Source: a phage. From it: a stretch of 45,917 nucleotides of DNA. The stretch lies in NCBI GenBank assembly GCA_014750165.1, contig GCA_014750165.1_4319.1; one strand, written 5' to 3'. Below are positions 6,649 through 45,581 of this stretch, in pieces. The position numbers and the translations under genes were made by a program. How positions within the stretch are numbered: the first letter of the stretch is position 1; every line of letters starts with the position of its first letter. The notes under the pieces were generated by a model. That model had not been told where the DNA came from. It saw nothing but the letters and a program-made list of their open reading frames with translations, and searched no databases.

Positions 6649-6660
6649 TTGGAGAAAATC

Positions 6661-7416: not shown

Positions 7417-7430
7417 CACTTTTTGTTAAG
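7413..7430 (+). promoter_or_regulatory. gene-boundary palindrome cassette, variant copy
   Basis: ATAGCACTTTTTGTTAAG followed by GCGCA..TGCGC inverted repeat; precedes HNH gene. Confidence 0.4.
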
Positions 7431-7482
7431 AGGAAGGCGCAGGAATGCGCTATCCTCTAATCTCTTAAACTGGAGATTAAAA

Positions 7483-7968
7483 ATGAACTGGAATGAAATT
7501 TTCGAATACAGAGATGGCAAGATTTATTGGAAAGTTAGCCCTGGCAGGAGGGCTAAGGTTGGTTCGGAAGCTGGATCAAATCAAATAAAAGGGTATAGAT
7601 TTGTGAAATTTCACGGAGTTTTATATATGACACACAGGGTTATTTGGGAGATGCATAACTGTGAAATACCGCATGGAATGGAGGTTGACCATTTAAATCA
7701 CATTAGGGACGATAACAGGATAGAGAATTTAAGAGTTGTTACAAAGTCAATTAATCAGAGGAATGCATCTAAAAGAATTGATAATAAAAGCGGTTTTACA
7801 GGCGTTTCTTGGTATCCCAAATATTCAAAGTGGAATGCTTACGCGACAGTAAATTCCAAGAGGTTTAATCTTGGTTACTTTGAATCAAAGCAAGATGCCT
7901 ATGTGGCTGTTAAAAAATTTAGGTCCATAAATGATTTTCATAAAAACCATGGAGTTGATTTATGTTAA
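7483..7968 (+). CDS. HNH homing endonuclease
   Basis: MNWNEIFEYRDGKIYWK...; HNH core EVDHLNHIRDDNRIENLR; ATG 7483 after GGAGA; paralogous to 27993..28485 and 34044..34535. Confidence 0.8.
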   Translation: MNWNEIFEYRDGKIYWKVSPGRRAKVGSEAGSNQIKGYRFVKFHGVLYMTHRVIWEMHNCEIPHGMEVDHLNHIRDDNRIENLRVVTKSINQRNASKRIDNKSGFTGVSWYPKYSKWNAYATVNSKRFNLGYFESKQDAYVAVKKFRSINDFHKNHGVDLC

Positions 7969-9314: not shown

Positions 9315-12300
9315 ATGGCACAAATGATCAAAACAAACATGGGGCTTTTTGATATGGCTGAAGAGATTAAGATTTATGGTGCTAAGGGTGGTAGCCAGAA
9401 GCAGCACCAACCAGTGGAGCAAGAAGATAACCTAATTTCACTTAACAAGGTTAAGGTACTGCTTGCGGTTGCTGATGGTGAGGTTGACCCTAATTTCTCA
9501 ATGAAGGATTTATACCTTGCTGACGTTCCGGTGCAAAACCAGGATGGTAGCTACAACTATGAAGGTGTTCGTGCTGAGTTCCGCGCTGGCACGCAGTATC
9601 AGGATTATATCGCTGGCCTTGATGGTGCTAACTCAGAGATTCAGGCTTCCAGAGAAATTACGAACGATACCCCGTACATCATTGCGGTTAACAACACTCA
9701 GCTATCAGCAATTCGAGTTAAGCTATTTTGGCCTCGACTTGTCAAGCAGGAAAGTAACGGTGACCTGAACGGTACAACATGCGAGTATGCAATTGACCTA
9801 TCTGTTAATGGTGGTGCTTACCAGGAATACACTCGCGGAGTTGCTAACGGGAAGACAACTACAGGTTACGACCGCAGCATTCGTATAAACCTTCCGGCTG
9901 AATTTGATAGCGCTTTGGTTCGTATCCGCAAGATTACAGCAGATTCAACAAGTAGCACACTGGTAAACGGGATGCAGATTACAACCTATCAGGAAGTAAT
10001 TGACGCTAAATTCCGCTATCCGCTTACCGCCCTGGTTTATGTTGAGTTTGGTTCTGACTTGTTCCCTAACGGAATCCCGACAATCTCAATCAAGAAGCGC
10101 TGGAAGTTAATTCAGGTTCCTACAAACTACGACCCGGAGACAAGAACTTACAGCGGGACATGGAATGGCCTTTTCAAAATGGCGTGGTCAAATAACCCGG
10201 CATGGGTTTTATATGACTTAGTAACAAACCGACGTTACGGACTTGACCAAAGAGAATTGGGTGTAGAGATTGATAAGTGGGGTCTTTACGAAGCTGCGCA
10301 ATTTTGTGACCAGATGGTTCCTGATGGTAAGGGTGGAATGGAGCCGCGCTACCTGTGCGATATGGTTGTGCAGAACAAGGTTGAGGCTTACACGCTAATT
10401 CGTGATATCTGCTCAATCTTCCGTGGCCTGACTTTCTATGACGGCGAAAAGATTGGTATCGTGGTTGATAAGCCTCGCAATCCATCTTACATTTTCACAA
10501 ATGATAACGTTGTAAACGGATTATTCAGCCGCACCTTTGCCAGTGACAAGAGTCTTTACACTACCGCAAACGTCCAGTTTGATGATGTAGAGAACAACTA
10601 TCAACAAGATGTAGAGCCGGTATTTGAATTAGAGGCAACTCGTCGTTTTGGATTTAACCCTGTAGATTTAACTGCGATTGGCTGTACTCGCAGAAGTGAA
10701 GCAAACAGACGTGGCAGATGGCTCCTAAAAACCAACCTGAGAAGCGAAACTATCAGCTTCACTACCGGGTTGGAGGGTATGATTCCGATGATTGGCGAGG
10801 TGATTGCGGTTAATGACGCGGCATGGTCTAGCAACTATCAGTTAAACCTTTCAGGTCGTATTGAATCAGTTCAGGGATTGCAGGCTTTTACCCCGTTCAA
10901 AGTTGACGCAGCGCCGGGTGACAGAATTCTTCTGAACAAGCCAGACGGCAGCCCAGAGGCAAGAACTATTGCCAGCGTTTCGGAGGATGGTAGAACAATC
11001 AACCTTAACACTGCTTTCAGCTTTGTAGCTCAGCCTGATACTGTATTCGCAATCGATAAGGATAATCTGGCGCTTCAGCAGTATGTTGTGACCGGGATTC
11101 AAAAAGCAGATACTGACGGCTCAGATTCATTCCAGTATACGATTACCGCGGTGGAGTATGACCCTAACAAGTATGACGAGATTGACTACGGCGTTAACAT
11201 CGTTGATCGTCCGACTTCAATCGTAGAGCCTGACAGATTGTCGCCGCCTGAGAATTTAACAGTGTCAAGCTACAGTAAGGTTGTTCAGGGCTTGTCAGTC
11301 GAGACGATGGTAATTGGCTGGGACAAGGCTCCATACGCTAAAACATACAATATTCAGTGGAGGAAAGAAAATGGTAACTGGATTAACGTACCCAGAACAG
11401 CAAGTACAGAAGTTGATATTGAGGGCATTTACGCAGGAATCTATGACGTTAGGGTTCGCAGCGTATCAGATACTGAAAACGTGTCTGCCTGGTCTAGCGT
11501 TGTAACGGTATCGCTAACTGGCAAGATTGGTCGACCTTCGGCGCCTACGGTTATCACGGCTTCAACTGATGAGGTATTTGGCATCCGTGTTAAGTGGGGT
11601 TTCCCTGAGGGTTCTGGTGACACTGCTTACACCGAACTTCAGCAGGTTCCAGATAATGGTGATGGTACTTACAATGCTGATAACGCGAGCTTACTTACGC
11701 TGCTTCCGTATCCGGCGTATGAATACTGGCACACGCCAATTCAGCCAGGCAAGGTGATTTGGTATCGCGCAAGATTGATTGACAGAATCGGTAACACATC
11801 TGATTGGTCTAATTTCGCAAGAGGCATGAGTACTGACGATGCCAACATTATCAATGATTACATCAAGGTTGATATTGAAGGTTCTGAAGGATTCAAATAT
11901 CTCGAGCAGAATGCGATTCAAAAGAATCAGGACATTCAGAATCAGGCAGAATCAATTCTCGAGAACGCATTAGCTAATGATACTGATGTTCGCCGCATGA
12001 CAAGGGAGAACGGCAAACGCAAGGCTGAATATGTTCAGGCAGTGAATCTAATAGCTGATGAAACTCAGGCGCGAGTAGAGGCTCTCACAGCTCTTAAGGC
12101 GCAGATAGATGATGAAGTTGTAGCATCGATTACAGAAGTTCAGACAGCTCTAGCAACTGAGACGGAAGCAAGAACTACTGCAGACACGGCTCTATCAGCA
12201 AGATTGGGTGATAACGAGGCGGCCATAAACCAGAAGTTAGACGCATTCTCCAATGCGACATCTACTGGCGTGCAATACGGAATCAGTTTAGGTCTTAAAT

Positions 12301-12740
12301 ATAACGGCCAGACTTATTCATCCGGCATGAGCATGGAGCTAGTTGGCACTGGTGGAAACGTTCGCAGTCAGTTCATTTTTGACGCAAACAGATTCGCAAT
12401 CAGTAACGGCATTGGTTCTGGTTCCGGTCAGTGGCAGCTCCCCTTCGTTGTAGAGAACGGAAACGTAATCATCCAGAGCGCAGTAATTGGTGATGGCTCA
12501 ATCAGTAACGCGAAGATTGGTAACTTTATTCAGTCTAATAACTACGTACCAGGAACTACAGGTTGGAGGATTGATAAGTCAGGAAGTGCAGAACTAAGTA
12601 ACGCAACTGTAAGGGGGAATCTGTACGCAAATAACGGTAACTTCGCATTCAATGGAACAAACAATACTGTTCAGATTAACAACAATGGAATTACAGTAAA
12701 CTTACCGAATGGAGGCAGGGTTGTAGTTGGAGTGTGGTAA
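9315..12740 (+). CDS. central tail fibre / host specificity protein (lambda J-like)
   Basis: 1141 aa; position after K/I homologs; C-terminal coiled-coil and receptor-binding region; exact start (9315 vs downstream Met codons) uncertain. Confidence 0.8.
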   Translation: MAQMIKTNMGLFDMAEEIKIYGAKGGSQKQHQPVEQEDNLISLNKVKVLLAVADGEVDPNFSMKDLYLADVPVQNQDGSYNYEGVRAEFRAGTQYQDYIAGLDGANSEIQASREITNDTPYIIAVNNTQLSAIRVKLFWPRLVKQESNGDLNGTTCEYAIDLSVNGGAYQEYTRGVANGKTTTGYDRSIRINLPAEFDSALVRIRKITADSTSSTLVNGMQITTYQEVIDAKFRYPLTALVYVEFGSDLFPNGIPTISIKKRWKLIQVPTNYDPETRTYSGTWNGLFKMAWSNNPAWVLYDLVTNRRYGLDQRELGVEIDKWGLYEAAQFCDQMVPDGKGGMEPRYLCDMVVQNKVEAYTLIRDICSIFRGLTFYDGEKIGIVVDKPRNPSYIFTNDNVVNGLFSRTFASDKSLYTTANVQFDDVENNYQQDVEPVFELEATRRFGFNPVDLTAIGCTRRSEANRRGRWLLKTNLRSETISFTTGLEGMIPMIGEVIAVNDAAWSSNYQLNLSGRIESVQGLQAFTPFKVDAAPGDRILLNKPDGSPEARTIASVSEDGRTINLNTAFSFVAQPDTVFAIDKDNLALQQYVVTGIQKADTDGSDSFQYTITAVEYDPNKYDEIDYGVNIVDRPTSIVEPDRLSPPENLTVSSYSKVVQGLSVETMVIGWDKAPYAKTYNIQWRKENGNWINVPRTASTEVDIEGIYAGIYDVRVRSVSDTENVSAWSSVVTVSLTGKIGRPSAPTVITASTDEVFGIRVKWGFPEGSGDTAYTELQQVPDNGDGTYNADNASLLTLLPYPAYEYWHTPIQPGKVIWYRARLIDRIGNTSDWSNFARGMSTDDANIINDYIKVDIEGSEGFKYLEQNAIQKNQDIQNQAESILENALANDTDVRRMTRENGKRKAEYVQAVNLIADETQARVEALTALKAQIDDEVVASITEVQTALATETEARTTADTALSARLGDNEAAINQKLDAFSNATSTGVQYGISLGLKYNGQTYSSGMSMELVGTGGNVRSQFIFDANRFAISNGIGSGSGQWQLPFVVENGNVIIQSAVIGDGSISNAKIGNFIQSNNYVPGTTGWRIDKSGSAELSNATVRGNLYANNGNFAFNGTNNTVQINNNGITVNLPNGGRVVVGVW

Positions 12741-12746
12741 ATGACT

Positions 12747-12772
12747 AGGCCCCTGAAGGGGCCTTTTCTTTT
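12747..12772. terminator. bidirectional terminator between convergent genes
   Basis: GGCCCC-TGAA-GGGGCC hairpin flanked by T-runs, between the J-like gene (+) and the 12771..13742 gene (-). Confidence 0.5.
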
Positions 12773-13742
12773 AGTAGAAGTTTGGAATAAATGGAAGTGC
12801 CATTGATATATTTGTGTCAAAAGGAAACTGAGCGCCTGTCTGAGTTGAGTAGTTACCTATTACAGATCCAGGAACAGCCCTAACGGAGCCACCAGACATA
12901 CAAACTCCCTTGTATCGTAAGTTGTTATACCCTCCGGTAACTCTAGTCGTAGCGCCGCACCTAAGTAGCGGGAAGAAACCACCATTTATTGACTGATATC
13001 CATTGCTTATTTGTATAAATCCACCAAGAACGAATGGTCGTCTAACGCTTGAAAAAACAATCTGACCAGAACTATTTGACATTGTGAGCCCTGGTCCTGC
13101 TGGTGGCGGTTCATTCCTGAATATCACTAACTGAACGTAAGTGCTTGCCGCCACGTCATCTATGCCACCATAGTTTACATCACGGCACCATATTGTACTA
13201 CCATCACTCTCCAGCGACACATTTGGGTTATCCCACTTACCAAATGGTATTCCGCTAACCGGTAGCGATGCTGCCCCGTTAACCTGTATTCCTCCAACCC
13301 ATGCTGCTGACATTAGTCTCGAGTTGCTTGATATGGCAAGGAAATCAGTTGAGTTCTCAACGAGTATGCCTGGACTTGATGAAGATGAAGCCGGTAGTAT
13401 CTCAAAGCAATTACCAGCAAAGTCAATTATTCTACCATTAGCACCATTGAAGTTGCTGAGCGTTATCCTGCCAGTTCCGTCATTTACCTTTTGAAACCCG
13501 TTCATGTAATAAACTTCGGGTATAACATCGTAAGCGTCAACGTGGACTGCCTTCGTTGGTAGGCAGAAAGCCGTAGAACCAGGTGACATTGTCAATCCAA
13601 AATCCCACGATATTGCTGGTGTTGAAAGTCCATTGGTATTTATTGATCCAGTCACAGCAGGTGCCCTTAATCCTGCCGTGATTTCCATCGCTGGTCTTCC
13701 GTCATTGAGGTCAATCAATATACCCTGCGGCATTATTTCCAC
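12771..13742 (-). CDS. putative tail fibre / receptor-binding protein
   Basis: 323 aa Gly/Ser/Asn-rich protein convergent with J; composition and position only. Confidence 0.35.
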
Positions 13743-13978
13743 TCCTTACTGCCGTGATCTGCAACAGAACCGCCGTAACCTCCGCCAGCTTTACTTTCAA
13801 TGCCAGCGTATCGAATATCAACCTCACCAGCAGGAACAACTACACCGCCTTTCCACTTAGCTACGCACACGCCGTTTGCTTGCGTTGCACACCAACCGTC
13901 CGGTCGAGGACCAGAAGAACAACCAACTGCCATGATTACTGCCGCTGCGATGATTGCTGATTTGATTAAGTTAGTCAT
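13733..13978 (-). CDS. small lipoprotein, Cor-like superinfection exclusion candidate
   Basis: Signal peptide with lipobox (IMAVGC); 81 aa; located next to tail fibre genes as cor is in T1/phi80-type phages; own upstream cassette. Confidence 0.45.
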
Positions 13979-14044
13979 TTTGTATTCCTTATTAAGTGCG
14001 TTTCGTTTCGATGGAGTAATAGTATCGCATCCTTGCGATCAGTG

Positions 14045-14065
14045 TTTAGCAATTAGTGCTATTCG
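14045..14065 (-). promoter_or_regulatory. gene-boundary palindrome cassette (minus orientation), upstream of cor-like gene
   Basis: Reverse complement reads GAATAGCACTAATTGCTAAA then CGCAAGG..TGCG hairpin, TACTAT, CATCGAAACGA; also supplies stop of the MTase-like gene. Confidence 0.5.
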
Positions 14066-14735
14066 CCAAAAATACAGCTCTTGCAAATCCACGAGGTGTA
14101 AGACTGCGAATTACCTTTGTTTTCTTGCTCTTCCCGCCTAGCTTCTTGTGCTGGTCTGAGTATCCATCATTAACGTCAACTGGTGAGGCATGAGGCCATT
14201 TAAACCCATTGCCAGACCAAATGCACGTCTTCTTAGGATATGCGTCTCTTGGCTTTATTAGGTCGCTAAAAAACGGGTGTAAATCATCTTCCGGCAAATA
14301 GCCTCCGTATTCGTAAGGGTGAAACGTGTTATCAGGTTTACGCCAGAGCGATGACAGCACGCTGACTGGGTTCTCAATCATGTATGGAACTCCGTATTTT
14401 TCAGCCAGTTTAAAAGCAACCTTGCAAGTCTCTGCCGCCTCAATTTGGAAGTTTTGGTTGGCTAGGCGCTTACGCTCAAAGTGTGCTGCCCCGCTCACGG
14501 CTAAATCCGTACAGGGCGGGAATGCCATGATAAAATCAGGCTTCACATCAAAATCAAAACTGGAATCTATCCAGGCGTTAACGTATGTAATGTTCTCATG
14601 TTCAACTCTTGCGTTTAAGTAGCTATAGCTCCCGTGGTCAGACTCATCAAAGTTGAAGCAGTAGCAAGTGTGACCAGCTTCAGCCCAATCCTTCACAGCT
14701 AGACCAGAACCATCAAATAAAGACCAGATAACTAT
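14046..14735 (-). CDS. DNA C5-cytosine methyltransferase-like protein (divergent)
   Basis: Motif IV-like FPPCT and motif VI-like IENP in track ORF 14046..14696; motif I-like SLFDGSG is encoded in the same frame just upstream (to stop at 14754-14756), where no ATG/GTG/TTG exists; 14735 is a candidate ATA start 7 nt after GAGGA. Confidence 0.5.
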   Translation of the reverse strand: MVIWSLFDGSGLAVKDWAEAGHTCYCFNFDESDHGSYSYLNARVEHENITYVNAWIDSSFDFDVKPDFIMAFPPCTDLAVSGAAHFERKRLANQNFQIEAAETCKVAFKLAEKYGVPYMIENPVSVLSSLWRKPDNTFHPYEYGGYLPEDDLHPFFSDLIKPRDAYPKKTCIWSGNGFKWPHASPVDVNDGYSDQHKKLGGKSKKTKVIRSLTPRGFARAVFLANSTNC

Positions 14736-14791
14736 TTTTAAATCCTCGTTAGTTTAAGTGCGGCGATTATACCGCACAGAATTTATTGTTC

Positions 14792-14810
14792 TTTAGCAAT
14801 TCGTGCTATT
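14792..14810 (-). promoter_or_regulatory. gene-boundary palindrome cassette (minus orientation), upstream of MTase-like gene
   Basis: Reverse complement AAATAGCACGAATTGCTAAAG; downstream TGCGG-TATAAT-CGCCGCA inverted repeat; overlaps Rha gene stop. Confidence 0.5.
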
Positions 14811-15453
14811 TCTTTTCCAGCAGCAGCTTGATGTCAATGCCGAGATTATTCTCAATCAATCCGGTCAGCGCATCATTCTTTTCTTTAAGGGCGAAGCATT
14901 GGGCTTCATATTTAAATCTCTCCTCCATCTCATCCGATCGACTAACCCAACATTGTCTAGCCTCACAAGCCAGCATATCGAGCTTTTCATCGGTATTCTT
15001 ATCCATGAGTAAAATCTCATTTATTCTTTGCTCTGCAACAATTCGCTGGCTCAGGTGTGCATTTTGCGCATTAGCCACACCAAGCATCATTCGAGCCTCT
15101 TTTAACTCATCAATGCTTACCATCTGGCTGATTACTTCTGCTTGCTTTTTAACTAATGCCTCCAGCTCATGAAGTCGACGGATTACTTTGTGTCGAAGCA
15201 CGACACTGTAGCCAGTGATTAGCGTTTCAGTGAGTTCCTTGTTGAGTAAAATCTCAGATGTATAGCCTCGATTGTCTGTAAGTAGTTGATAATCATCATG
15301 CCCCAAATCTGGGGCATCGTTATAATGTAACAATTCATTGATCATTTCCTTTGTGTCGCGAACGACGTGATCATGACGTTTGCCGGTTAACTCTGCGATT
15401 TCCTTTGTGCTCATCATGGTTTTTGGTTGTTCTTTGTACGCTTTAATGTTCAT
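14806..15453 (-). CDS. Rha-family phage regulatory protein
   Basis: STKEIAELTGKRHDHVVRDTKEM matches Rha-domain signature; start set at internal ATG 15453 (MNIKAYKEQ...) rather than track start 15534. Confidence 0.55.
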   Translation of the reverse strand: MNIKAYKEQPKTMMSTKEIAELTGKRHDHVVRDTKEMINELLHYNDAPDLGHDDYQLLTDNRGYTSEILLNKELTETLITGYSVVLRHKVIRRLHELEALVKKQAEVISQMVSIDELKEARMMLGVANAQNAHLSQRIVAEQRINEILLMDKNTDEKLDMLACEARQCWVSRSDEMEERFKYEAQCFALKEKNDALTGLIENNLGIDIKLLLEKK

Positions 15454-15548
15454 TTTAATCTCTCTATATGTTTTGACTTCGAAAATTTCGTATTCAAGCA
15501 GCACCATTGCCGCCATGAGCCTAAATATACCCAAAGATACCCAGTTGT

Positions 15549-16446: not shown

Positions 16447-17412
16447 ATGAGATTTAAGGTTTTTACTCGAGAGGAACTAAGCAACGAGGCTTACCACTCA
16501 GAGACTGAACACATCTCCGGCAGCTCACTTGTTGAGATTATCCAGGGCTCACCAGCTAAGTGGAAATTCAAACAACGTAACAATGATAGCAAGGCTCTTA
16601 AGTTTGGCACACTAAGCCACACGATGATTCTCGAGCAAGATGTATTCGACAAGGAGTATCTTCGAGCTACAGATCTTGATGCGATTGAAGGATTAATTAC
16701 AAGTCAGACCGGATTGGCCTCAGCACTTAAAAAAGTTGGTGTAGCTGGCACGTCCGGTAAGGGGTATAGCGAGCTAGTAGAGATGATGCATCGCTCTGGT
16801 GAGGATTGGCCTGTTAAGTGGCTAATTGAGCAGCAGGAGAGCGCTCAGGCGCTCGTGGAGGGTAAAGAGCTAGTTAGTGCAGCGGACTATGACAAAGTGG
16901 TAGCGATGCGTGAGGTTCTTTGCAACATTCCAGCATATGATGCAATCGTGAACAGCGAGACGGCGCAGAAAGAGCTATCAATCTTCGGTGAGATTCTAGG
17001 TGTTGGCGTTAAGATTCGAATCGACCATGTTGATGTTGTTGATGGAGTCGTTCGGATCACAGATTATAAAACTACCGCAGACGCTAGCCCGGAAGGATTT
17101 GGTAAGTCGGCTTTTAATCACGGATACCTTGCAAAAATGGCGCTTCAGCGCGACCTGTTTGTGAAGGCATTCAACGAGAAGAGAAAGGTTATTGTAGGAT
17201 TGCTGGCGCAGGAGAAGGTAGAGCCATATTTACCAATGCTGTACACCTTGACGGACGAACAGCTACGAATTGGTCGTCTCCAGTATCTTGAGGCGCTCGC
17301 CACTTACAAGAAGTGCAAGGAGCTAGATATCTGGCCTGGATATTCGAACGGCATTACAGAGCAAGAATTGATGATTCCTGAGTGGGCGTTAAAACAATAT
17401 AAAGAAATCTAA
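16447..17412 (+). CDS. recombination exonuclease, PD-(D/E)xK family
   Basis: IRIDHVD...ITDYKT matches D...(D/E)xK nuclease core; located upstream of ERF and SSB genes. Confidence 0.55.
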   Translation: MRFKVFTREELSNEAYHSETEHISGSSLVEIIQGSPAKWKFKQRNNDSKALKFGTLSHTMILEQDVFDKEYLRATDLDAIEGLITSQTGLASALKKVGVAGTSGKGYSELVEMMHRSGEDWPVKWLIEQQESAQALVEGKELVSAADYDKVVAMREVLCNIPAYDAIVNSETAQKELSIFGEILGVGVKIRIDHVDVVDGVVRITDYKTTADASPEGFGKSAFNHGYLAKMALQRDLFVKAFNEKRKVIVGLLAQEKVEPYLPMLYTLTDEQLRIGRLQYLEALATYKKCKELDIWPGYSNGITEQELMIPEWALKQYKEI

Positions 17413-17485: not shown

Positions 17486-18136
17486 ATGCAAATTTCAGAA
17501 TCATGCAAATCAATTTTAAACGCGCTTCACACCGCTAAATCGCTATTTGCTAAGGCTGAGAAGTCTAAGCAGAACTCACACTTAAAGAACAAGTACGCCA
17601 CCTTAGAAGACGTGCTAGCGGCCGTTGAGCCAGGCTTAGATGAGTGTGGCTTGGTTATGTTCCAGAGCGTGCTTGATGATGAACAAACCAACCGTATGAA
17701 GGTTGAGACAAAACTGTTTCATGCTGAATCTGGAGAGTGGGTTAGCTTCTTGATGATAGTCCCAATCAGTAAGAATGATGCTCAAGGTTACGGATCTGCG
17801 CTTACATACGCTCGTCGCTACGGAATCACAGCAGCCTTAGGCCTTAGCCAGGCAGATGATGATGGCAATCTGGCAGCCAAGGGTGTTAAAGACTTTAAGC
17901 GAGAACTTGAGAAGTGTAATACGCTCGATGAGCTTCGTAACGTTTGGAAGGATGCTAAGCAATCACTTGATGCGGCAGGATGGAAGGTTTTCGAGCCTCA
18001 TATTATCGAGCGAAAAGCAGAGATTGAAGCAAACGCAGCAACTGGCTTCAACCCAGCAACACCAAAGAGAGTCGCAGAAAAAAGTAGTCCTGAAGAAAAG
18101 ATTGAAGTAGAATCACAACAAATCGACACATTCTAA
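17486..18136 (+). CDS. ERF-family single-strand annealing protein
   Basis: NKYATLEDVLAAVEP and TYARRYGITAALGL motifs resemble P22 Erf; between exonuclease and SSB. Confidence 0.8.
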   Translation: MQISESCKSILNALHTAKSLFAKAEKSKQNSHLKNKYATLEDVLAAVEPGLDECGLVMFQSVLDDEQTNRMKVETKLFHAESGEWVSFLMIVPISKNDAQGYGSALTYARRYGITAALGLSQADDDGNLAAKGVKDFKRELEKCNTLDELRNVWKDAKQSLDAAGWKVFEPHIIERKAEIEANAATGFNPATPKRVAEKSSPEEKIEVESQQIDTF

Positions 18137-18176: not shown

Positions 18177-18608
18177 ATGCACGTAATTACTGGTCAGATT
18201 CGCCGCGCTCCGTTCACCAAAGAAGGTCAAAACGCTAATGGTACATGGAAAATGTTTGCGGTTGATTTGAGTGAGCGATACAAGGATAAAGATGGGCAGA
18301 CTCAGTATAGTAACTATCGCGCCGTCTTCTTCGCCAAAGAGTCCATGTTAGATTGGTATAATGAAGCATTTCAAGAGGGTAAGGTTATTAGCGTTAGTGC
18401 TGAAACATTGGCTGTAGATGTTAGGGATAAAGATGGTAAGACTTACGTTACTGTCAATATGAACAATCCTCGACTTGAATTTAGTCAGCGTGGTGATTCA
18501 GCAACACAACAGACACAGCAAAATCAACATCAGCCAAAACAGCAGCAACAGCAGAATCAACGACAACCACAGCAGCAAAGTCAATTCAACGATGACATCC
18601 CATTCTGA
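18177..18608 (+). CDS. single-stranded DNA-binding protein
   Basis: Gln-rich linker and C-terminal acidic tip ...FNDDIPF characteristic of bacterial/phage SSB. Confidence 0.85.
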   Translation: MHVITGQIRRAPFTKEGQNANGTWKMFAVDLSERYKDKDGQTQYSNYRAVFFAKESMLDWYNEAFQEGKVISVSAETLAVDVRDKDGKTYVTVNMNNPRLEFSQRGDSATQQTQQNQHQPKQQQQQNQRQPQQQSQFNDDIPF

Positions 18609-18616: not shown

Positions 18617-18640
18617 AAAGCCCCTTTCGGGGCTTTTTTG
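18617..18640. terminator. rho-independent terminator between convergent genes
   Basis: AGCCCC-TTTC-GGGGCT hairpin plus T6; abuts tailspike stop. Confidence 0.6.
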
Positions 18641-21238
18641 TTATGGCCTCATGAATCTAATTGCAGCCTGACCAGACACGCTAACTTCAGATGTATTGTG
18701 ATTAACTAAGAATACGTTAACACTACCAGTCCCGCCACCAGCCCTGGATGCAAATATATCAATACCACTAAGCCCAGAACTAACATCCACGTTTATGAAA
18801 TCACCATACTTAACTCCAGGGACGCTAACTGTTCCTAGAAATGACATTCCACCATTAGCTGCAAGTGTAACAGTGTAGTCAATATATGAAGGCTGTGAGA
18901 ATCCATTAATGAAAACAGATCCATTAACAAGCCCGCCAACATCACAGTTACTTGTGTAATCTATTCTGCTATCAGCGGATGCAGAGAGAGGGTAAGAGTA
19001 CTGCGATCCAGAGACTACAGGTAGGTTGCTTGCGCTAACCCTTACATTTGAACCTGAATTTGCAAGCACTACATAAGAGTTTGCTCCATCACTAATAACA
19101 TCAGAACTTCCACCAGAAACAAAACCAGATAAGTTGACTCCTGAAATATCAACGTCTGAGTTTGTGAATCTAAAAAGATAAGCCTCCTGTCCTTTCGGGT
19201 TTTGGTTTCTCCATGACGGTATCGAAAACCCTGAAATCTTTGCTGAATTGCAGTCAATAAGAACAAAGTCTGATCCGCCATTAATATTAACCTTTGATGA
19301 TTCATGCTGCATTCCAGTTATCGTCAACCCAGGGCACTGAGTTGCAATAAACGGCGTTAAGTTTCCAAAATTAGAGCTGCCATCGTACGCGCAGTTCACC
19401 AAAGTAGCTACGTGACAGTACTTTAGCGCCCATGACGCATAGCAATCAAGCGAGTAGCATGATGAGTACTTAACGGTTGTCCCGTAGTCTTTCCTAAAGC
19501 CCTGAATGCAATCCCACGCCCAGCAATTAACATACTCCATCAAATAAGCTGACGTCACATCGTAGAATCCATAGTAGGCACCTCTTACTATTACATTCTC
19601 AACCTTAAAGTTTGTAACTCCACCTGCGAGAGGGTCAATTGAAGAATCTCTGGTTCCAAAATCAATGCCACGACTAAAACCACTGTCTGTCGTTGGCTTA
19701 CCAGACTGATAGTTAATCCAAAAGTTAGCTATTGACCCACCTGGTTGATATCCGGTAGGGAAGTGCTCGAATCCAGAATGATCACCAGAGCATTGTATAA
19801 TTGTTCCGTATTTTGAATTTGGGTAGGTTGATGCCCCTCTTATGTTTTGAGTTCCGAAAAGTATTGGCCCACTAGTCAAAATTACACCTGGAGGAAAAGT
19901 CACATCCTGAAGCGTCGATGTTGCTCTGTTTGCTGCCGCGGTGTCATCACTTACACCGTCAGCTTTCACTCCAAACCATCTAGCATCAACTGGACCAGTG
20001 TAGCTTCTCTTCCATCTTCTATCCAATGCGTCAACAAGAATAGTACCATCATTGTCCTCGCTAGATGTGTCTGAATCATCTCTCTGGAATATACCAAAAG
20101 CATTATCTGCGATCGTCTCTCTTCCGTAACAACTAATGGAATAATCAGAACCCGAATAACCCCTTATGTCGCTATAGTTTGCCGAACCTATTTTTGAGAG
20201 TGAAGACACTCCTCCAAGATCTGCTTTTGAGTAAACGTCAAGATTAATTCTCGCAGCTTCTTTATTTGGGATGTCGCTAAGGTTGGAAGACCTTAGAAAG
20301 GTTTCACCCTTCGAGTAAACATCAAGCAACCCCCTAACCCTCAAGGCGCTAGAACCACCAGTAGCACCATCTCCACCAGGAACGCTTAGAAGTTCCCTTA
20401 CATAAAAATTCCTAGAACCAGTAGCTCCAGTAAAGGTAATTTCCGCAACCCTAAAAACTGCGTTTGAGGTTGTAGAAGGAGAAATTCTTACTACGTTACT
20501 TCCATTAATACCACGCGTTGCAAGAACATCAATACAAATAGTGGTGTTTGTCGCCGGGAACATTGAACTTAAGTCTGCCGGAATGTTAACCATGTTGTCA
20601 ATTTTGCACTGGTAACTACCACCTGAATAAAATTGCATTGTCTGCCAATCAAGAGATGTTAAAAGTGGAGTTGTTGTGCTTCCTATACCGTGTTCTGCAA
20701 AGTAAGCCACTGCGGCGGTATTCCCGGCTGCATTTATTGCGGCAACGGTTCTGTTGTATGAGTTCTGTGCATTATTGCTAGCACCAACGGCAGTTGATGC
20801 GCTTTCTGCGGCAGCAACCTGACTAGCAAGCGCCTCCGCAGCTCCAGTGGTGGATTGATTTGCAAGTTGCTCGAATCGAGGCCAGTCGAAAGTGTCTTGA
20901 CCAATAAATTGCAGCAATCCTTCGATGGATGTCTCCTTAGACTGGTAGTAACGCAAAGTCTCTGCTACATCCTGAGCTAAACCCTGAACGGTAATCCCAT
21001 CGTGAGCAAGGATCGCATAACCAGTTCCTGCAGGAACAGTTTCAGAATTAGGGTTATAAACATTAATCTGCGTATCGCTGATGATTTCTGAGATGGTGTA
21101 AATCTTCAGGGGGCTTGTTTTAAAAATAATGGTTGCACCTACACGAATCAGTGTAAGCGGTGCTTTCCATGTTGTTCCGACCCCAGTCACCTCGCCATTT
21201 GCGGCTAGCGACGCTGTTCCTAAGTCATAAATTGCCAT
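18641..21238 (-). CDS. tailspike / tail fibre with pectate-lyase-like beta-helix (putative depolymerase)
   Basis: 865 aa from internal ATG 21238 (MAIYDLG...); central RWFGVKADGVSDDTAAANRA resembles the start of pectate-lyase-superfamily beta-helix domains; track N-extension would read through the palindrome element. Confidence 0.75.
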   Translation of the reverse strand: MAIYDLGTASLAANGEVTGVGTTWKAPLTLIRVGATIIFKTSPLKIYTISEIISDTQINVYNPNSETVPAGTGYAILAHDGITVQGLAQDVAETLRYYQSKETSIEGLLQFIGQDTFDWPRFEQLANQSTTGAAEALASQVAAAESASTAVGASNNAQNSYNRTVAAINAAGNTAAVAYFAEHGIGSTTTPLLTSLDWQTMQFYSGGSYQCKIDNMVNIPADLSSMFPATNTTICIDVLATRGINGSNVVRISPSTTSNAVFRVAEITFTGATGSRNFYVRELLSVPGGDGATGGSSALRVRGLLDVYSKGETFLRSSNLSDIPNKEAARINLDVYSKADLGGVSSLSKIGSANYSDIRGYSGSDYSISCYGRETIADNAFGIFQRDDSDTSSEDNDGTILVDALDRRWKRSYTGPVDARWFGVKADGVSDDTAAANRATSTLQDVTFPPGVILTSGPILFGTQNIRGASTYPNSKYGTIIQCSGDHSGFEHFPTGYQPGGSIANFWINYQSGKPTTDSGFSRGIDFGTRDSSIDPLAGGVTNFKVENVIVRGAYYGFYDVTSAYLMEYVNCWAWDCIQGFRKDYGTTVKYSSCYSLDCYASWALKYCHVATLVNCAYDGSSNFGNLTPFIATQCPGLTITGMQHESSKVNINGGSDFVLIDCNSAKISGFSIPSWRNQNPKGQEAYLFRFTNSDVDISGVNLSGFVSGGSSDVISDGANSYVVLANSGSNVRVSASNLPVVSGSQYSYPLSASADSRIDYTSNCDVGGLVNGSVFINGFSQPSYIDYTVTLAANGGMSFLGTVSVPGVKYGDFINVDVSSGLSGIDIFASRAGGGTGSVNVFLVNHNTSEVSVSGQAAIRFMRP

Positions 21239-21259
21239 TGCGTAAAGTCTCCATTTGTA

Positions 21260-21279
21260 AAATAGCACGAATTGCTAAG
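21260..21279 (+). promoter_or_regulatory. gene-boundary palindrome element in inverted orientation relative to downstream minus-strand gene
   Basis: AAATAGCACGAATTGCTAAG on + strand between primase-like gene end and tailspike start. Confidence 0.4.
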
Positions 21280-21325
21280 TTGGATTGTAGCATCTTTCAG
21301 GTATAAAAAAACCTCCCGAAGGAGG

Positions 21326-22249
21326 TTAGTCTAGTAATTCACTTGCTTTGTATATTCGTTTTCTTATTCCTGACTTAAAAAAATTATCATCATTTGGCAT
21401 TACCACATCAAGATCGCGATCGTCAGCAACGGCGAGTAAATCAAAAGCGTGGCGAGTACAAGCGACGCGTAACTTGTAGTTTCTAAGCGCGTAAGCAACC
21501 ATTTCCATGTTGTAACTGGAGTGGCAAACAAGCACACAGCGGTTCCCTGTAGCAATGTGAACGCGATAGCCGTCAATGAAATTATCGACCAGATAAGCGT
21601 ACTCATCATCTTTAAAGGAACCAATAACAGCAATAGACTGGCGAGTATAATCTTTTGCAGCATAACTAACATCTCCCTCTTCATTGATAAACATTACATT
21701 GCACATTTCTTCTGATATACCATCACTATAGGCCATAAAACAAGGCACTGCGTGTATTAGTTCGCCTGATTTTGCCCTGCCAACATCAAAACCAAACTCA
21801 CTATAGATACCCTCGTATGTACTGAGCGGAGTTGATTCTACTCTTTCCGTCCTTTCCATTATCTCTAAGCATCTTTCGTGATCAATCTTGGCTCCCATTT
21901 TGTAGATCTGGGTTCTTGATGCTTGCTTGTTTGCCTTGTTGACAACCTCAACCGGGATAAGGTTTAGCCACTCACCGAGAACGTCGATACACTCACTGAA
22001 TGACTCGCCTCGAAGCTTCTGGACCCAGAGAATTCCATCCCCTGAGCCGCATTGGTTGCAGATAATGCCGCCATCACCCTCCTCGCTAACCTTGTTAGTC
22101 CATCTTGCCCTATCGTTGCCGCCACAATAAATGCACGGCTGATGCTTCTTAGTCTGGAAAAACTTAGGATCTGCGCCGCATATATTGACAAGAGCCTTAT
22201 CCCACAGGCCTCTCATTCTTGGTAGAACCTCTTTCTTATCGTAGTGCAT
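21326..22249 (-). CDS. putative DNA primase (Zn-ribbon plus Toprim-like region)
   Basis: CIYCGG...CNQCGSGDG zinc-binding motif near N-terminus; acidic Toprim-like segment (LLAVADDRDLD); assignment tentative. Confidence 0.45.
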   Translation of the reverse strand: MHYDKKEVLPRMRGLWDKALVNICGADPKFFQTKKHQPCIYCGGNDRARWTNKVSEEGDGGIICNQCGSGDGILWVQKLRGESFSECIDVLGEWLNLIPVEVVNKANKQASRTQIYKMGAKIDHERCLEIMERTERVESTPLSTYEGIYSEFGFDVGRAKSGELIHAVPCFMAYSDGISEEMCNVMFINEEGDVSYAAKDYTRQSIAVIGSFKDDEYAYLVDNFIDGYRVHIATGNRCVLVCHSSYNMEMVAYALRNYKLRVACTRHAFDLLAVADDRDLDVVMPNDDNFFKSGIRKRIYKASELLD

Positions 22250-22307
22250 ATCAATCTATCTCTTAACAAATAAAAAAGGATGTACCGATTATGGCACATC
22301 CAATTAT

Positions 22308-22781
22308 TTACCCTTTAGCTTTTCGTGCTGCCTCGTTAGCGGCCTTAATCTTGCGCCATGATCGACACTCTGGCTTGGTGGCTAACTCAGCCTCAGTAAC
22401 CACGCGTAGCATGTGACGCTTTTTGCACCGGAGTGTCAGTGGCTTGCCGTTACCGTCAAATTGCAGGTCTGGTCGGCAGAATGTAGCACGAAAACCCTCT
22501 CCGTTTCGTTTGTAGTAGTTGTGCGACAGTTGAGCACCGCGCGCAGAAATCATACCACGCTTAAACCATTCTTCTACAGCCTGCGGAGTTACCTTTAACT
22601 TCTTTGCAATATTCGCCTTTGTGACGAAGAAATCAAGGAGCATCTCAAGCCGCGCGCGTAGCCCGGCTCTTACTTCATCTTTTAAAACGTAGTAGCCTGA
22701 AGGTCGTTTACGTTGTTTTTTGTCTTCAGTGCGGATAGTTCCGTTATTACCGTTAGTGGTTCGCTTGTCAACTGCATTCAT
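22308..22781 (-). CDS. HTH DNA-binding protein (putative transcriptional regulator)
   Basis: Basic N-terminus and helix-turn-helix-like segment KKLKVTPQAVEEWFKRGMIS; divergent from helicase gene. Confidence 0.5.
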   Translation of the reverse strand: MNAVDKRTTNGNNGTIRTEDKKQRKRPSGYYVLKDEVRAGLRARLEMLLDFFVTKANIAKKLKVTPQAVEEWFKRGMISARGAQLSHNYYKRNGEGFRATFCRPDLQFDGNGKPLTLRCKKRHMLRVVTEAELATKPECRSWRKIKAANEAARKAKG

Positions 22782-22882: not shown

Positions 22883-24877
22883 ATGTTGCCTATCGAGAAG
22901 CTGGTTGCAAACTTCGATAAAGAAAGAATCAAGCAGATTCAGAAAGATTATCAGTTTGGCGAGATAACCCCTTACGAGTTCCAGTGCGTAACATTCGATG
23001 CAATCGGAAAGGCTATTGGAAAGTACGAGGCCCCATTTATCGCTGACCTTTCCGTGTCTGCGGGTAAGACAATTATTCTCGCTATGATTGGAAAGCGTAT
23101 GGAGCAGCTTGGTCTTCCTTATATGGTCCTCTCTCGCCAGTCAGAGATAATCAGCCAGAACTCAGAAGAGCTTCGCAACTTCGGCATCCGTAACAGCGTC
23201 TATTGCGCTGGCCTTAACGTTAAATCAGTTTACTACCCAACCATAGTCGCTAGTGAAGGTACCGCGGCTAACGGCTTGTTTAAGGGGCTTGGTGACTATG
23301 TTCCGGCAGTTATCGCAATCGATGAGTGTCACATGCTTGATGCTATGGATATCGTTGAAGCCGAGGAGAACGAAGAAACATTTGAGCAAATGAGCACAAA
23401 GAAAGGTGAGATGGTATTTAAGGATGGTGTTAATACCGGGTTGCTTGGCACTGGCCGCGCGCAGTACACGCTAATCATTACCGAGATGAAACGTCGTTGT
23501 CGTGAGAAGTACGGTCGCGAGCTTAGGATTTTTGGCCTTACTGGTAGCCCATATCGTAACAACGATCACATTGTCGTTAGTAACCAAAATGTCCGTGGAT
23601 TCTGGCGCAAAACGGTAATACAAGTACCAACAAATTACCTTGTTGATTTGGGATTCGTTGTTCCAACCGTTTACGGAGAGGTTGGTGATTTGGGTTACGA
23701 CCTTGCAGAGTTTGCGCCAGACGGAAGCGATGGCGTTAAAGACTTTAGCAAGAAAGAAATGGAAGCAATGGCTGCAAAGATTCACGACAACCAATCCATG
23801 ACTCAAAGGATAATGGGTTTTGTTGTAAAAATACTTGAGACTCGAAACGCCGCATTGGTCACCTGTGCTGGCAAACTCCATTGTGATGAGGCTGCTGCGG
23901 CACTCCCAGACGGATACCCCTACGCCATCATCACAGACTCCACTGGAGAGAGGAAGCGCAGAGAGATTCTAGCTGATTGCCAGACTGGAAAGTACAAAAT
24001 AATATTCCAGATTGGCTGTCTAACTACGGGCGTAAACCAGCCATTGTGGGATACCAGCGTTATACTGCGCAAGATTGGCAGTTTGACTTTGATGATTCAG
24101 CTTCTTGGTCGTGGCATGCGAAAACTAAAAAAGGCGCACATAGATGCGGGGTTCAAGAAGGAGGATCACTTGGTATTAGACTTTGCCGGAGCGCTGGATG
24201 ATATGGCCGAGCTTTACTTTGACCCAATAATTGAAGAAATTCAGGCTGAGAAGTTCAAGTCCTCAAGGAAAGGTGGTGATGAGGCCCGTCAGTGCCCGCA
24301 ATGTGGATATGAGAACTCACCATTTGCTCGACGCTGTGGCAATAAGATTGATGGTGTTAGATGCGATCACTTCTTTCAGTTCACAACTTGCGAAGACATT
24401 ACGGACCCACAAACTAAATCGGTAATTAAAAAGGGATGTGGCGCTCGTAACGACATAGCGGCAAAGGTTTGCCGAGAGTGCGGTGAGATGCTTAAAGACC
24501 CGAATGCTAATCTGACCGGTAAGATGTATCGTCGAGGAGATTACTTGCGCGTTTATGATTTCCAGATTGGATTGAGTAAAAATCAAACAGGAATAGTAGT
24601 TAAATACAACATCATGGCACATAACGGAGAGAGGTTTAACGCGTGGGAATTCTTTAACCCTGAGTCTGACCATCGAGTTTGCAGTGTTCTATGGAAAAAC
24701 TTCTGCCTAGCTCATATTGAGAATCGAACAGAAGCAGCACGAATTGGAAGATTAAAGAATGCTAGAATGATCATGACCAACGTAGATAAGTTCCGTGCGC
24801 CAGTGCAAGTAACACACAGAAAAAACGGCAAAGGAAAGGACGTGATCGCGTTTAAGAATTTTGGAGAATTGAAGTGA
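22883..24877 (+). CDS. SF2 DNA helicase with C-terminal zinc ribbons
   Basis: Motif I SAGKT, motif II DECH, motif VI QLLGRGMR; C-terminal CPQCG...CDHF...CRECG cysteine pairs. Confidence 0.75.
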   Translation: MLPIEKLVANFDKERIKQIQKDYQFGEITPYEFQCVTFDAIGKAIGKYEAPFIADLSVSAGKTIILAMIGKRMEQLGLPYMVLSRQSEIISQNSEELRNFGIRNSVYCAGLNVKSVYYPTIVASEGTAANGLFKGLGDYVPAVIAIDECHMLDAMDIVEAEENEETFEQMSTKKGEMVFKDGVNTGLLGTGRAQYTLIITEMKRRCREKYGRELRIFGLTGSPYRNNDHIVVSNQNVRGFWRKTVIQVPTNYLVDLGFVVPTVYGEVGDLGYDLAEFAPDGSDGVKDFSKKEMEAMAAKIHDNQSMTQRIMGFVVKILETRNAALVTCAGKLHCDEAAAALPDGYPYAIITDSTGERKRREILADCQTGKYKIIFQIGCLTTGVNQPLWDTSVILRKIGSLTLMIQLLGRGMRKLKKAHIDAGFKKEDHLVLDFAGALDDMAELYFDPIIEEIQAEKFKSSRKGGDEARQCPQCGYENSPFARRCGNKIDGVRCDHFFQFTTCEDITDPQTKSVIKKGCGARNDIAAKVCRECGEMLKDPNANLTGKMYRRGDYLRVYDFQIGLSKNQTGIVVKYNIMAHNGERFNAWEFFNPESDHRVCSVLWKNFCLAHIENRTEAARIGRLKNARMIMTNVDKFRAPVQVTHRKNGKGKDVIAFKNFGELK

Positions 24878-44639: not shown

Positions 44640-45581
44640 ATGGCCATTAAATTTGATGCAGAACAAGCAAAAATCACCGCTCATCTCGAGCAAATGGGCG
44701 TAGATAAGGCTGATGCCGCTGGTATCTGGACTGTTAGCCAGCTGACCGCCGCTCTTAATCGCGCTTATGAAAAAGAATATGCAGAAAACTCAGTTGTTAA
44801 TATCTTCCCTGTAACCAATGAAATCCCTGGTCATGCGAAGTATTTCGAATATCCAGAGTTTGATGGTGTTGGTATTGCTCAGATTATCGCTGATTACTCT
44901 GATGACCTGCCGCTGGTTGATGCTTTCATGACTGAGAAACAAGGTAAAGTGTTCCGTTTCGGTAACGCGTTCCTTATTTCTACCGATGAAATCAAAGCAG
45001 GCGCTGCAACTGGTCAGTCACTGTCAACTCGCAAGCAAGCCCTGGCTTTCGAAGCGCACGATAACCTGCTTGATAAACTGGTTTGGTCTGGCTCCACCCC
45101 GCACGGTATCCCTAGCGTATTCGACCACCCGAACATCAACAACGTTGTTGCTGGTACGTGGAACTCCGCAGCTGCCGCCATGACTGATATCACCGCACTT
45201 ATTGATGCGATCGAGACTTCGACCAATGGCACTCACACCGCAACCGATATCTTGCTGCCTGCTTCCGCTCGCCGCCTGATGCAAGAGCTGGTTCCTAACA
45301 CCTCTATCAGTTACGCGCAGTTGTTTGCTACCAACAACTCGGGCATCAATCTTCGTTATCTTCAGTTCCTGGATAACTACGACGGCGCAGGCGGCAAAGC
45401 AGCATTGGCATTTGAAAAAAATCCGCTTAACCTTTCGATTGAGATCCCGGAAGCCACTAACGTGCTGCCTGGGCAAGTGAAGGATTTACATATCAAGTAC
45501 CCTGTAACCTCTAAGACCACAGGATTGATTTTATATCGCCCTCTGACAGTGGCAGTAATGAAAGGTATCACCTTCGCGTGA
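44640..45581 (+). CDS. major capsid protein
   Basis: 313 aa ORF with strong RBS, followed by strong terminator; position after scaffold/decoration genes. Confidence 0.75.
   Translation: MAIKFDAEQAKITAHLEQMGVDKADAAGIWTVSQLTAALNRAYEKEYAENSVVNIFPVTNEIPGHAKYFEYPEFDGVGIAQIIADYSDDLPLVDAFMTEKQGKVFRFGNAFLISTDEIKAGAATGQSLSTRKQALAFEAHDNLLDKLVWSGSTPHGIPSVFDHPNINNVVAGTWNSAAAAMTDITALIDAIETSTNGTHTATDILLPASARRLMQELVPNTSISYAQLFATNNSGINLRYLQFLDNYDGAGGKAALAFEKNPLNLSIEIPEATNVLPGQVKDLHIKYPVTSKTTGLILYRPLTVAVMKGITFA

Follow-up and report, generated by a model that had tools for sequence, protein, structure and literature searches.

The minus-strand gene at 18641..21238 of the window (the whole stretch of 45,917 nucleotides that was analysed) very probably encodes the lateral tail fibre or tailspike of a Braunvirinae phage, built from a tail-docking N-terminus and an exchanged beta-helix module that binds a glycan and most likely cleaves it. 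The window is from an E. coli siphophage of the Braunvirinae (Drexlerviridae, T1-like). Its first 25 kb are 87-88% identical, over 80-84% of their length, to phages CEB_EC3a, BEK3, JeanPiccard and SU57; identity to phage 2725-N35 is 88% at the nucleotide level and the two spikes are 41.7% identical. The gene is the usual side tail spike of such a T1-like phage, with the position and orientation found in its relatives. The original prediction described a tailspike with an adaptor-like N-terminus, a pectate-lyase-like beta-helix and a likely glycan-directed role in host range, acquired as a module and bounded by a terminator and an inverted cassette. Its reading of the protein appears to hold on sequence and predicted structure, and its reading of the genome is largely replaced here.

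Locus, gene boundaries and terminators

The features of the locus are as follows.

18177..18608, plus strand: ssb, single-stranded DNA binding protein, convergent neighbour (open reading frame; SSB orthologue annotated in JeanPiccard and SU57)
18617-18636, both strands: bidirectional intrinsic terminator of ssb (plus) and tailspike (minus) (hairpin, U-runs, conservation, SU57 annotation)
18641..21238, minus strand: tailspike or lateral tail fibre coding sequence, 865 aa, ATG at 21238, stop at 18641-18643 (list of open reading frames, annotated orthologues, phrog_24092)
21239..21299, minus strand: tailspike leader, 62 nt, conserved in relatives, with a possible extended -10 element TGCTACAAT at 21284-21292 and GGAG at 21249-21252
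21300..21327, minus strand: intrinsic terminator of the primase gene, hairpin 21310-21327 and U-tract 21303-21309, overlapping the primase stop codon
21326..22249, minus strand: DNA primase (zinc-ribbon), upstream co-directional neighbour (PF08273, E 2.3e-9; annotated primase in JeanPiccard, BEK6 and SU57)
22278..22781, minus strand: Cro-like regulator (22308..22781) with its own terminator (22278-22301), first gene of its block (open reading frame, Pfam, terminator scan)

The longest minus-strand open reading frame, 18641..21268, has 875 codons if begun at GTG. We take as genuine the 865-residue gene that begins at ATG 21238, where a GGAG Shine-Dalgarno sequence lies 10 nt upstream and where the equivalent ATG is annotated as the start in JeanPiccard, BEK6, FP, 2725-N35 and SU57. 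A protein of the same length, 97% identical, is present in a public assembly, and phrog_24092, 'tail fiber protein', matches residues 1-337 (E 1.8e-126). The predicted protein length was thus correct; the end coordinate given with it, 21279, overshoots by about 40 nt into the untranslated leader because the start codon is the ATG at 21238.

By the Pfam matches of its neighbours, the gene is convergent with ssb and is flanked by exoVIII-erf-ssb on one side and by the primase/helicase genes on the other. It had been described as encoded opposite to its neighbours, which is true of ssb, erf and exoVIII on the left, all on the plus strand, but not of the primase and regulator, which share its strand; these three genes form a minus-strand block of which the tailspike is the last member. 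The same gene order is seen in JeanPiccard, BEK6, FP, 2725-N35, 26174I and SU57 and in the metagenomic contig SRR7716743. This layout was described for 13 BASEL Drexlerviridae, with a lateral tail fibre locus whose 5' end is conserved and whose remainder is variable (PMC8594841, main text and S1C Fig legend), and a description of the locus was also published in PMC11990801. Position, orientation and flanking terminators are alike in the BASEL locus (JeanPiccard/Bas02 bas02_0034; SU57_00050, 'tail spike protein').

Hairpins that are rich in G+C and followed by a U-run occur 3' of each gene of the block, at 18617-18636 on both strands and at 21327-21310 and 22301-22278 on the minus strand. The first, AAAGCCCC-TTTC-GGGGCTTT, sits between the stop codons of ssb (18608) and the tailspike (18641); it has U-runs on both strands and a folding energy of -14 kcal/mol (z -3.4 to -4.3), and five relatives keep it, BEK6 with a compensatory change in the stem. 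The terminator predicted at the 3' end of the gene is thereby confirmed, and the SU57 annotation (ARNold) places terminators at both sites flanking the tailspike gene. Each gene of the block would thus close with its own intrinsic terminator, and the last of these, being bidirectional, would also end ssb.

The 5' palindrome, AACCTCC-CGAA-GGAGGTT at 21310-21327, had been taken to run against the gene, in contrast to other copies of the element, and the gene, on that view, was a recently acquired inverted cassette with the 3' terminator and this opposed palindrome as its boundaries. The convergence with ssb would suit such a cassette, as would the plus-strand reading of the element, which is the reverse complement of its sole close copy (44547-44572, plus strand, 26/26 identical). 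However, on the minus strand the element reads AACCTCC-TTCG-GGAGGTT and then TTTTTATACC, a hairpin and U-tract in the direction of the gene (-12.3 kcal/mol, z -3.15), and acts as terminator for the primase gene upstream; five relatives have the same hairpin and T-run, save for one loop base in FP. The copy at 44547-44572 precedes a plus-strand capsid gene and is related to it as 21310-21327 is to the tailspike, so that gene and element are inverted as one, and the element keeps its orientation with respect to the gene. Moreover, the orientation is shared with the Braunvirinae relatives, as is the position, and despite unrelated C-termini these relatives retain 86-93% nucleotide identity across the leader, the two terminators and the opening 100-340 codons; the same layout is annotated in SU57 and described for the 13 BASEL phages. 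We therefore give the inverted cassette next to no credence.

The position of TGCTACAAT in the leader hints at a possible promoter. A sigma-70 promoter scan of 21239-21299 listed none, and the pattern TGNTAYAAT occurs five times in the window against 4.0 expected, which is chance frequency.

Conserved anchor and exchanged module

Within the protein, the following regions were distinguished, all on the minus strand.

21008..21238, minus strand: N-terminal anchor beta-domain, aa 1-77, conserved across Drexlerviridae (invariant columns, phmmer, AF2 strands at 4-77)
20693..20989, minus strand: long alpha-helical segment, aa 84-182 (AF2 helices 84-113, 119-170 and 174-182)
20384..20671, minus strand: intermediate beta-domain, aa ~190-285, in only some relatives (AF2 strands 208-283, pLDDT 80-94)
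20204..20383, minus strand: low-confidence linker, aa 286-345, with the innermost recombination breakpoints (pLDDT 39-56)
19994..20203, minus strand: neck or connector domain with the DTSSEDNDGTILVDALDRRWKR motif, aa 346-415 (near-invariant residues in a 24-sequence alignment)
18899..19993, minus strand: right-handed parallel beta-helix, aa ~416-780 (first rung RWFGVKADGVSDDTAAANRA at 19922-19981)
18644..18898, minus strand: C-terminal beta-sandwich domain, aa ~781-865 (AF2 strands, fragment residues 455-534; within the module common with KM02 to the last residue)
18644..20223, minus strand: horizontally exchanged module, about aa 339-865 (without nucleotide match in phages or E. coli; protein homologues with other anchors)

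The adaptor-like character of the N-terminus was borne out. All 29 columns invariant among 106 homologues lie inside residues 1-99, and the anchor is common to 931 phage records, in which it is fused elsewhere to PF13884, PF25670, PF21882, PF12708, or PF18668 with PF03372 or PF03009. The first ~100-170 residues belong to the anchor family of Drexlerviridae and KP36-like depolymerases: phmmer aligns residues 1-168 with about 165 residues at the N-terminus of the Depo32 and DpK2 chains (7VYV/7LZJ, E 1.7e-34), a region named a conserved KP36-like anchor plus helical bundle in the Depo32 paper. Residues 84-182 are modeled as helices and presumed to form a trimeric helical bundle. A Foldseek search of the N-terminal AF2 model (pLDDT 75.6, pTM 0.41) against the PDB returned insignificant matches only, such as Uba1 and ATPase barrels, which agrees with the Depo32 paper, in whose map the anchor cannot be seen. 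Many proteins with the same anchor carry PF13884 (Peptidase_S74, a C-terminal intramolecular chaperone); the tailspike has no Pfam match to it.

Similarity to the Klebsiella Webervirus ('KP36-like') enzymes Depo32 (7VYV/7VZ3) and DpK2 (7LZJ) is confined to the anchor. Past residue ~170 no similarity remains between the sequences, structural alignments of the beta-helices give 11-18% identity, the catalytic Glu/Asp of Depo32 are without an alignable counterpart in the tailspike, and the host genus differs. The lateral tail fibres of other Drexlerviridae are 74-93% identical over the first 138-340 residues, whereas their ~525 C-terminal residues are another allele, with at most about 29% local identity to the beta-helices of 2725-N35 and SU57.

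Nucleotide homology to the relatives breaks at 20940, at 20781-20786, at 20313-20316 (JeanPiccard and FP) or at 20224 (BEK6), and restarts at 18642-18643. The breakpoints are thus nested, at about residues 100, 152, 308 and 339, and the exchanged stretch runs to the stop codon. The intermediate beta-domain is common to BEK6, FP and JeanPiccard and has diverged too far for megablast to detect in 2725-N35, 26174I and SU57; homologue P0003, 125 aa shorter and matching phrog_24092 over residues 1-181 only, apparently does without it. These breakpoints are practical junctions for swaps of receptor-binding domains in Drexlerviridae.

Because relatives with unrelated C-termini keep the terminators, the orientation and the opening 100-340 codons, the exchanged unit is only about 18644-20223. 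The acquisition as a module that was originally proposed therefore stands for about residues 339-865 and fails for the gene as a whole, whose orientation, leader, terminators and 5' codons are backbone; the comparison of related phages that had been suggested gave the expected N-terminal conservation and C-terminal swapping. On the sequence comparisons, only the C-terminal ~525 codons seem to have been exchanged horizontally, with breakpoints within the gene.

The C-terminal 1.6 kb had no megablast match among 50,697 phage records, and blastn matched the module to none of 5,426 complete E. coli genomes, so the latter give no clue to a prophage donor or an O-serotype. At the protein level, a word-prefiltered search of 5.8 billion proteins yielded a family of 24 clusters, and the 50,697 phage records contain one close relative, the 58% identical spike of KM02 (Kayfunavirus, Autographiviridae; XFA12284.1). 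The KM02 homology starts at residue 334 and extends from the neck to the last residue (57.5% identity, aa 334-865); the N-terminus of this podovirus spike is a T7 tail-fibre adaptor (PF03906) with Tail_spike_N (PF18668) and not the Drexlerviridae anchor. Other proteins with 40-56% identity also have other anchors. Among them are P22-type prophage tailspikes (including Citrobacter freundii P0010 and P0012), which align over 96-98% of the module and have a PF09008 head-binding N-terminus, a domain that the present tailspike lacks. The same C-terminus is thus found behind the T7-fibre N-terminus with PF18668, behind the P22 head-binding domain in Citrobacter-named proteins, and behind at least two other anchors.

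Predicted fold and possible catalysis

The pectate-lyase-like beta-helix of the original prediction was recovered by fold prediction, in which the AF2 model (pLDDT 87.8) is a right-handed parallel beta-helix of the pectin-lyase-like type (IPR011050) whose first rung, RWFGVKADGVSDDTAAANRA, corresponds to residues 420-439. The neck preceding it matches the tailspike of Acinetobacter phage AM24 (5W5P; E 4e-8 with the single sequence, 2.7e-22 with a profile). PF12708 matches the first rungs only (aa 420-478) and below threshold (19.9 bits, cut-off 27); homologue P0005 is just above the cut-off (27.9 bits), and P0001, the 97% identical protein, has a precomputed match to PF27114, 'Phage_tail_beta', that is marked weak.

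Could the beta-helix be a binding-only spike, which recognises a glycan or another surface structure without cleavage? We consider this quite improbable. Most of the top structural matches are enzymes, and these include many tailspikes or depolymerases of phages; CBA120 TSP2 gave the longest alignment, at 406 residues. In addition, 16 homologues, with identities as low as 40%, all keep four acidic residues and a histidine (E547, D560, D619 and H645-E646). The gaps of 59 residues between D560 and D619 and 27 residues between D619 and E646 would place D560, D619 and E646 one or two rung-lengths apart.

The chemistry of a cleaving module is a separate matter. CBA120 TSP2 (5W6P/6W4Q) and the A-module of the mannuronan C-5 epimerase AlgE4 (2PYG) are 14-17% identical to the tailspike, a fold-level kinship, and hydrolase, lyase or epimerase chemistry is not transferable from them. 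A profile of the full module reaches AlgE4/AlgE6 and a phage pectin lyase in the PDB at only E 1e-6 to 5e-5, and a profile limited to the helix core (aa 440-800, first rung left out) found no relative of solved structure there. The invariant acidic residues are without alignment to a known active site because the helix core has no sequence-detectable solved relative. An apparent similarity between YYGFYD (aa 555-560) and the AlgE motif YG(F/I)DPH was given no weight.

Glycan target and host range

The tailspike is probably a homotrimer. By homology, residues 1 to about 180, which comprise the N-terminal beta-domain and the helical bundle, would dock it on the tail, and the neck, beta-helix and beta-sandwich (aa ~340-865) would bind a host surface polysaccharide as the primary receptor and, given the predicted fold, most likely cleave it. 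Binding would place the tail tip at a receptor that is an outer-membrane protein; recognition of this receptor, according to the literature, falls to a separate protein encoded downstream of gpJ. The value of these assignments is mainly annotation; the BASEL papers had already described the locus, as well as the general design in which the beta-helix behind a conserved anchor can be exchanged.

Capsule or O-antigen is a plausible target. That the module instead targets a glycan of rough strains (LPS core, enterobacterial common antigen or colanic acid) is unlikely, though not far-fetched. E. coli K-12 is rough. KM02 was isolated on E. coli K-12 JCM20135, and its spike is the sole close isolate homologue of the module (58%, aa 334-865) and the only fibre or spike in the annotated stretch, from internal virion proteins to terminase. 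A tblastn search with the module is also consistent with a rough-strain glycan: none of its 33 matching records was a phage named as O16-dependent in PMC11990801, in a collection that may lack those genomes. Kinship with the BASEL O16-specific tailspike group was rejected on the same search, within the same limits of the collection. Against a rough-strain glycan, specificity can differ at 58% identity, and the 40-56% homologues, two of them named Citrobacter freundii, carry P22-type head-binding domains. Tailspikes of that architecture classically target O-antigen. The LPS phenotype of the JCM20135 stock is unreported in the KM02 paper.

Capsule or O-antigen is plausible as the target, and the tailspike gene is the probable primary-receptor determinant of the phage; the C-terminal allele would therefore help to predict or engineer host range. 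Since the podovirus KM02, whose spike is the one close relative, was grown on K-12, a glycan other than O-antigen is a possible target, and there is a slim chance that this small, uncharacterised beta-helix family recognises or degrades a conserved enterobacterial glycan of that kind (LPS core, enterobacterial common antigen, colanic acid or similar). If so, a T1-like phage would have a serotype-independent primary receptor.

Tailspike locus and gene start

In a nucleotide search, the window's first 25 kb showed 87–88% identity across 80–84% of its length to Escherichia phages (vB_EcoS_CEB_EC3a, BEK2/3/6, JeanPiccard (Bas02), SU57, Msk and 2725-N35), and about 88% was the highest identity that any phage record of the collection reached. 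The relatives' records that were examined are classified as Drexlerviridae, subfamily Braunvirinae. Two records with other host labels, MG065688.1 (Campylobacter phage A110b) and PP134917.1 (Pseudomonas phage PsgS01F), are 87–95% identical to this backbone; the labels look doubtful, possibly through contamination or carry-over.

Genes surrounding the tailspike gene (from the ORF list and Pfam hits)
16447..17412, plus, DUF3799/PDDEXK exonuclease, left neighbour
17486..18136, plus, ERF recombinase, left neighbour
18177..18608, plus, SSB, left neighbour, convergent with the tailspike gene
21326..22249, minus, zinc-ribbon primase, right neighbour
22308..22781, minus, Cro-like regulator, right neighbour
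22883..24877, plus, helicase, right side

On the minus strand, the regulator, primase and tailspike genes form a block of three, which ends with the tailspike gene. The original prediction that this gene lies opposite to its neighbours thus holds on the convergent ssb side but not for the primase and regulator, which are co-directional with it. Gene order and orientation are kept in the records of all six relatives examined and in a 44.6-kb contig assembled from SRR7716743, whose tailspike region is 96% identical to that of the window, and the arrangement was described for 13 Drexlerviridae in the BASEL paper (PMC8594841). Both the kind of gene and its locus are already well described, and the feature is a new allele.

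The single long ORF of the region, 18641..21268 on the minus strand, comprises 875 aa counted from a GTG. Translation starts instead at the ATG at 21238, with GGAG 10 nt upstream; the same MAIYD... start is annotated for the orthologues in JeanPiccard, BEK6, FP, 2725-N35 and SU57, and the SRR7716743 contig encodes a protein of exactly 865 aa that is 97% identical. The predicted length of 865 aa is confirmed by this start, and the upper coordinate proposed with it, 21279, consequently takes in about 40 nt of untranslated leader.

Terminators and leader

Hairpin elements and the gene downstream of the terminator copy
18617-18636, both strands, hairpin AAAGCCCC-TTTC-GGGGCTTT between the convergent ssb and tailspike stop codons, with a U-run on each strand
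21310-21327, minus, primase terminator, reading AACCTCC-TTCG-GGAGGTT and then TTTTTATACC
22278-22301, minus, the regulator's own terminator
44640..45581, plus, major capsid gene (phrog_264), downstream of the terminator copy at 44547-44572

A terminator had been expected at the 3' side of the tailspike gene, and the hairpin found there (−13.7 and −14.4 kcal/mol, z −3.4 and −4.3 on the two strands) bears this out: it is kept in five relatives, in BEK6 with a compensatory stem variant (GGAGCC/GGCTCC), and is annotated as a terminator in the SU57 record, as is the 5' element (as primase terminator). The 5' palindrome (−12.3 kcal/mol, z −3.15) overlaps the primase stop codon with its stem, has no downstream U-run on the plus strand, and is the same with its T-run in five relatives, except for one loop base in FP. 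It is a canonical intrinsic terminator of the primase gene, directed along the tailspike gene. Its only close copy in the window (44547-44572, plus strand, 26/26 bases) stands to the capsid gene as the 5' element stands to the tailspike gene, and all G+C-rich tetraloop hairpins with U-runs in the window lie 3' of the terminated gene or between convergent genes. The proposal of a palindrome that, unlike other copies, opposes the gene in orientation is therefore wrong; the palindrome and the gene are inverted jointly.

The 26-nt identity between 44547-44572 (plus) and 21300-21325 (minus) covers terminator plus tail, CCTCCTTCGGGAGGTTTTTTTATACC, and the capsid-side copy is followed by TTGCGT-N16-TATAAT ahead of the capsid gene. 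Since both downstream genes are structural, this could be a terminator-promoter arrangement shared by late genes, or mere sequence homogenisation. Each cistron of the block has its own terminator (22278-22301, 21310-21327 and 18617-18636), so expression of the downstream genes would require read-through, antitermination or internal promoters. The 62-nt tailspike leader holds TGCTACAAT (21284-21292), similar to an extended −10 element and on positional grounds a candidate promoter element; a sigma-70 scan listed no promoter in the leader, and TGNTAYAAT occurs in the window at chance frequency (5 observed vs 4.0 expected). Of the five copies, three are found 25–45 nt upstream of gene starts (21284-21292, minus; 32997-33005, minus; 39014-39022, plus), two of them directly after terminators.

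Conserved anchor and exchanged module

Residues 1–168 match the first 165 residues of Depo32 (7VYV/7VZ3) and 7LZJ (E about 1e-34), as expected for the predicted adaptor-like N-terminus. 7LZJ is DpK2 of phage RAD2 and, like Depo32, a Klebsiella siphophage depolymerase. In the Depo32 paper this region comprises a helical bundle and an anchor conserved among KP36-like phages, neither visible in the map, which accounts for the lack of a significant Foldseek match to our N-terminal model. The AF2 model of aa 1–345 (pLDDT 75.6) has four parts: a small beta-domain (aa 4–77), long helices (aa 84–182), a second beta-domain (aa about 190–285) and a low-confidence linker (aa 286–345). The anchor is common to 931 phage records, chiefly of Klebsiella and Escherichia phages, and in metagenomic proteins it is joined to PF13884 chaperone-type fibres, PF25670, PF21882, PF12708, PF27114, or PF18668 with a PF03372 or PF03009 domain.

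Nucleotide homology with the relatives continues past the primase gene into the tailspike gene and ends at differing points.

End of homology within the tailspike gene
20940 (approx. aa 100), SU57
20781-20786 (approx. aa 152), 2725-N35 and 26174I
20313-20316 (approx. aa 308), JeanPiccard and FP
20224 (approx. aa 339), BEK6

In four of these relatives it resumes at the tailspike stop codon (18642-18643). By this comparison the exchanged unit is internal to the gene, about 18644-20223; 2725-N35 (MN840485.1), 88% identical to the window, has a tailspike of 41.7% aa identity. The anticipated N-terminal conservation and C-terminal swapping are seen, but the terminators, leader and 5' codons belong to the backbone rather than to an acquired module.

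At the nucleotide level the C-terminal unit had no match in 50,697 phage records or 5,426 E. coli genomes. At the protein level, only one isolate has a close relative of it, the Kayfunavirus KM02 tailspike (57.5% identity over aa 334–865). A word-prefiltered search of 5.8 billion proteins gave 24 relatives: Drexlerviridae-type proteins (69–98% identity), tailspikes that carry a P22 head-binding domain (40–56%; two bear the name Citrobacter freundii) and others, whose anchors are of at least two more types. One homologue (P0003), 87% identical in the C-terminal module, is 125 aa shorter, and its match to the anchor family is confined to the first ~181 residues; the intermediate domain is therefore probably itself optional.

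Beta-helix, activity and target glycan

The AF2 model of aa 330–865 is confident (pLDDT 87.8, pTM 0.82) and has a small neck domain, the RWFGVKADG strand (motif aa 420–439) followed by a capping helix, then a long parallel beta-helix and, at the end, a beta-sandwich. Its Foldseek matches in the PDB are chiefly tailspikes and depolymerases (Klebsiella K2-2 TSP, Kp7 gp52, CBA120 TSP2, Sf6, HK620, AM24 and K1 lyase; E 1e-9 to 1e-5, 11–16% identity), which argues for the predicted depolymerase-like beta-helix and against a non-enzymatic fibre fold. Since PF12708 scored below threshold in the tailspike, no relative of solved structure was detectable by sequence for the beta-helix core, and the residues invariant in beta-helix homologues (E547, D560, D619, H645-E646) align onto no known active site, enzymatic activity, whether of a hydrolase or of a lyase, is an inference.

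The KM02 tailspike (5371-7584 of PQ179042.1) fuses a T7 tail-fibre N-terminus and PF18668 to a module homologous to the C-terminal unit. In the annotated part of the genome from internal virion proteins to terminase, no other fibre or spike gene is seen. The isolation host of KM02 is E. coli K-12 JCM20135. We presume this strain to be rough, and a beta-helix tailspike as sole fibre or spike gene would be unusual for a phage of such a host. By analogy with this phage, the glycan range of the module family may extend beyond O-antigen and capsule, although 58% identity leaves room for differing specificity and the homologues with P22 head-binding domains point the opposite way.

By analogy with Depo32/DpK2 and the BASEL model, the tailspike trimer would be attached to the tail via aa 1 to about 180, and its beta-helix would bind a surface polysaccharide as facultative primary receptor, probably cutting it. 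The tail tip would next engage an outer-membrane protein via the receptor-binding protein encoded after gpJ (PMC8594841). Three minus-strand ORFs (12771-15534) lie immediately downstream of a gpJ-like gene (9315..12740), at the position where the BASEL papers put the genes for the terminal receptor-binding protein and for superinfection exclusion (PMC8594841, PMC11990801); the first of them matches phrog_1265 'membrane protein'.
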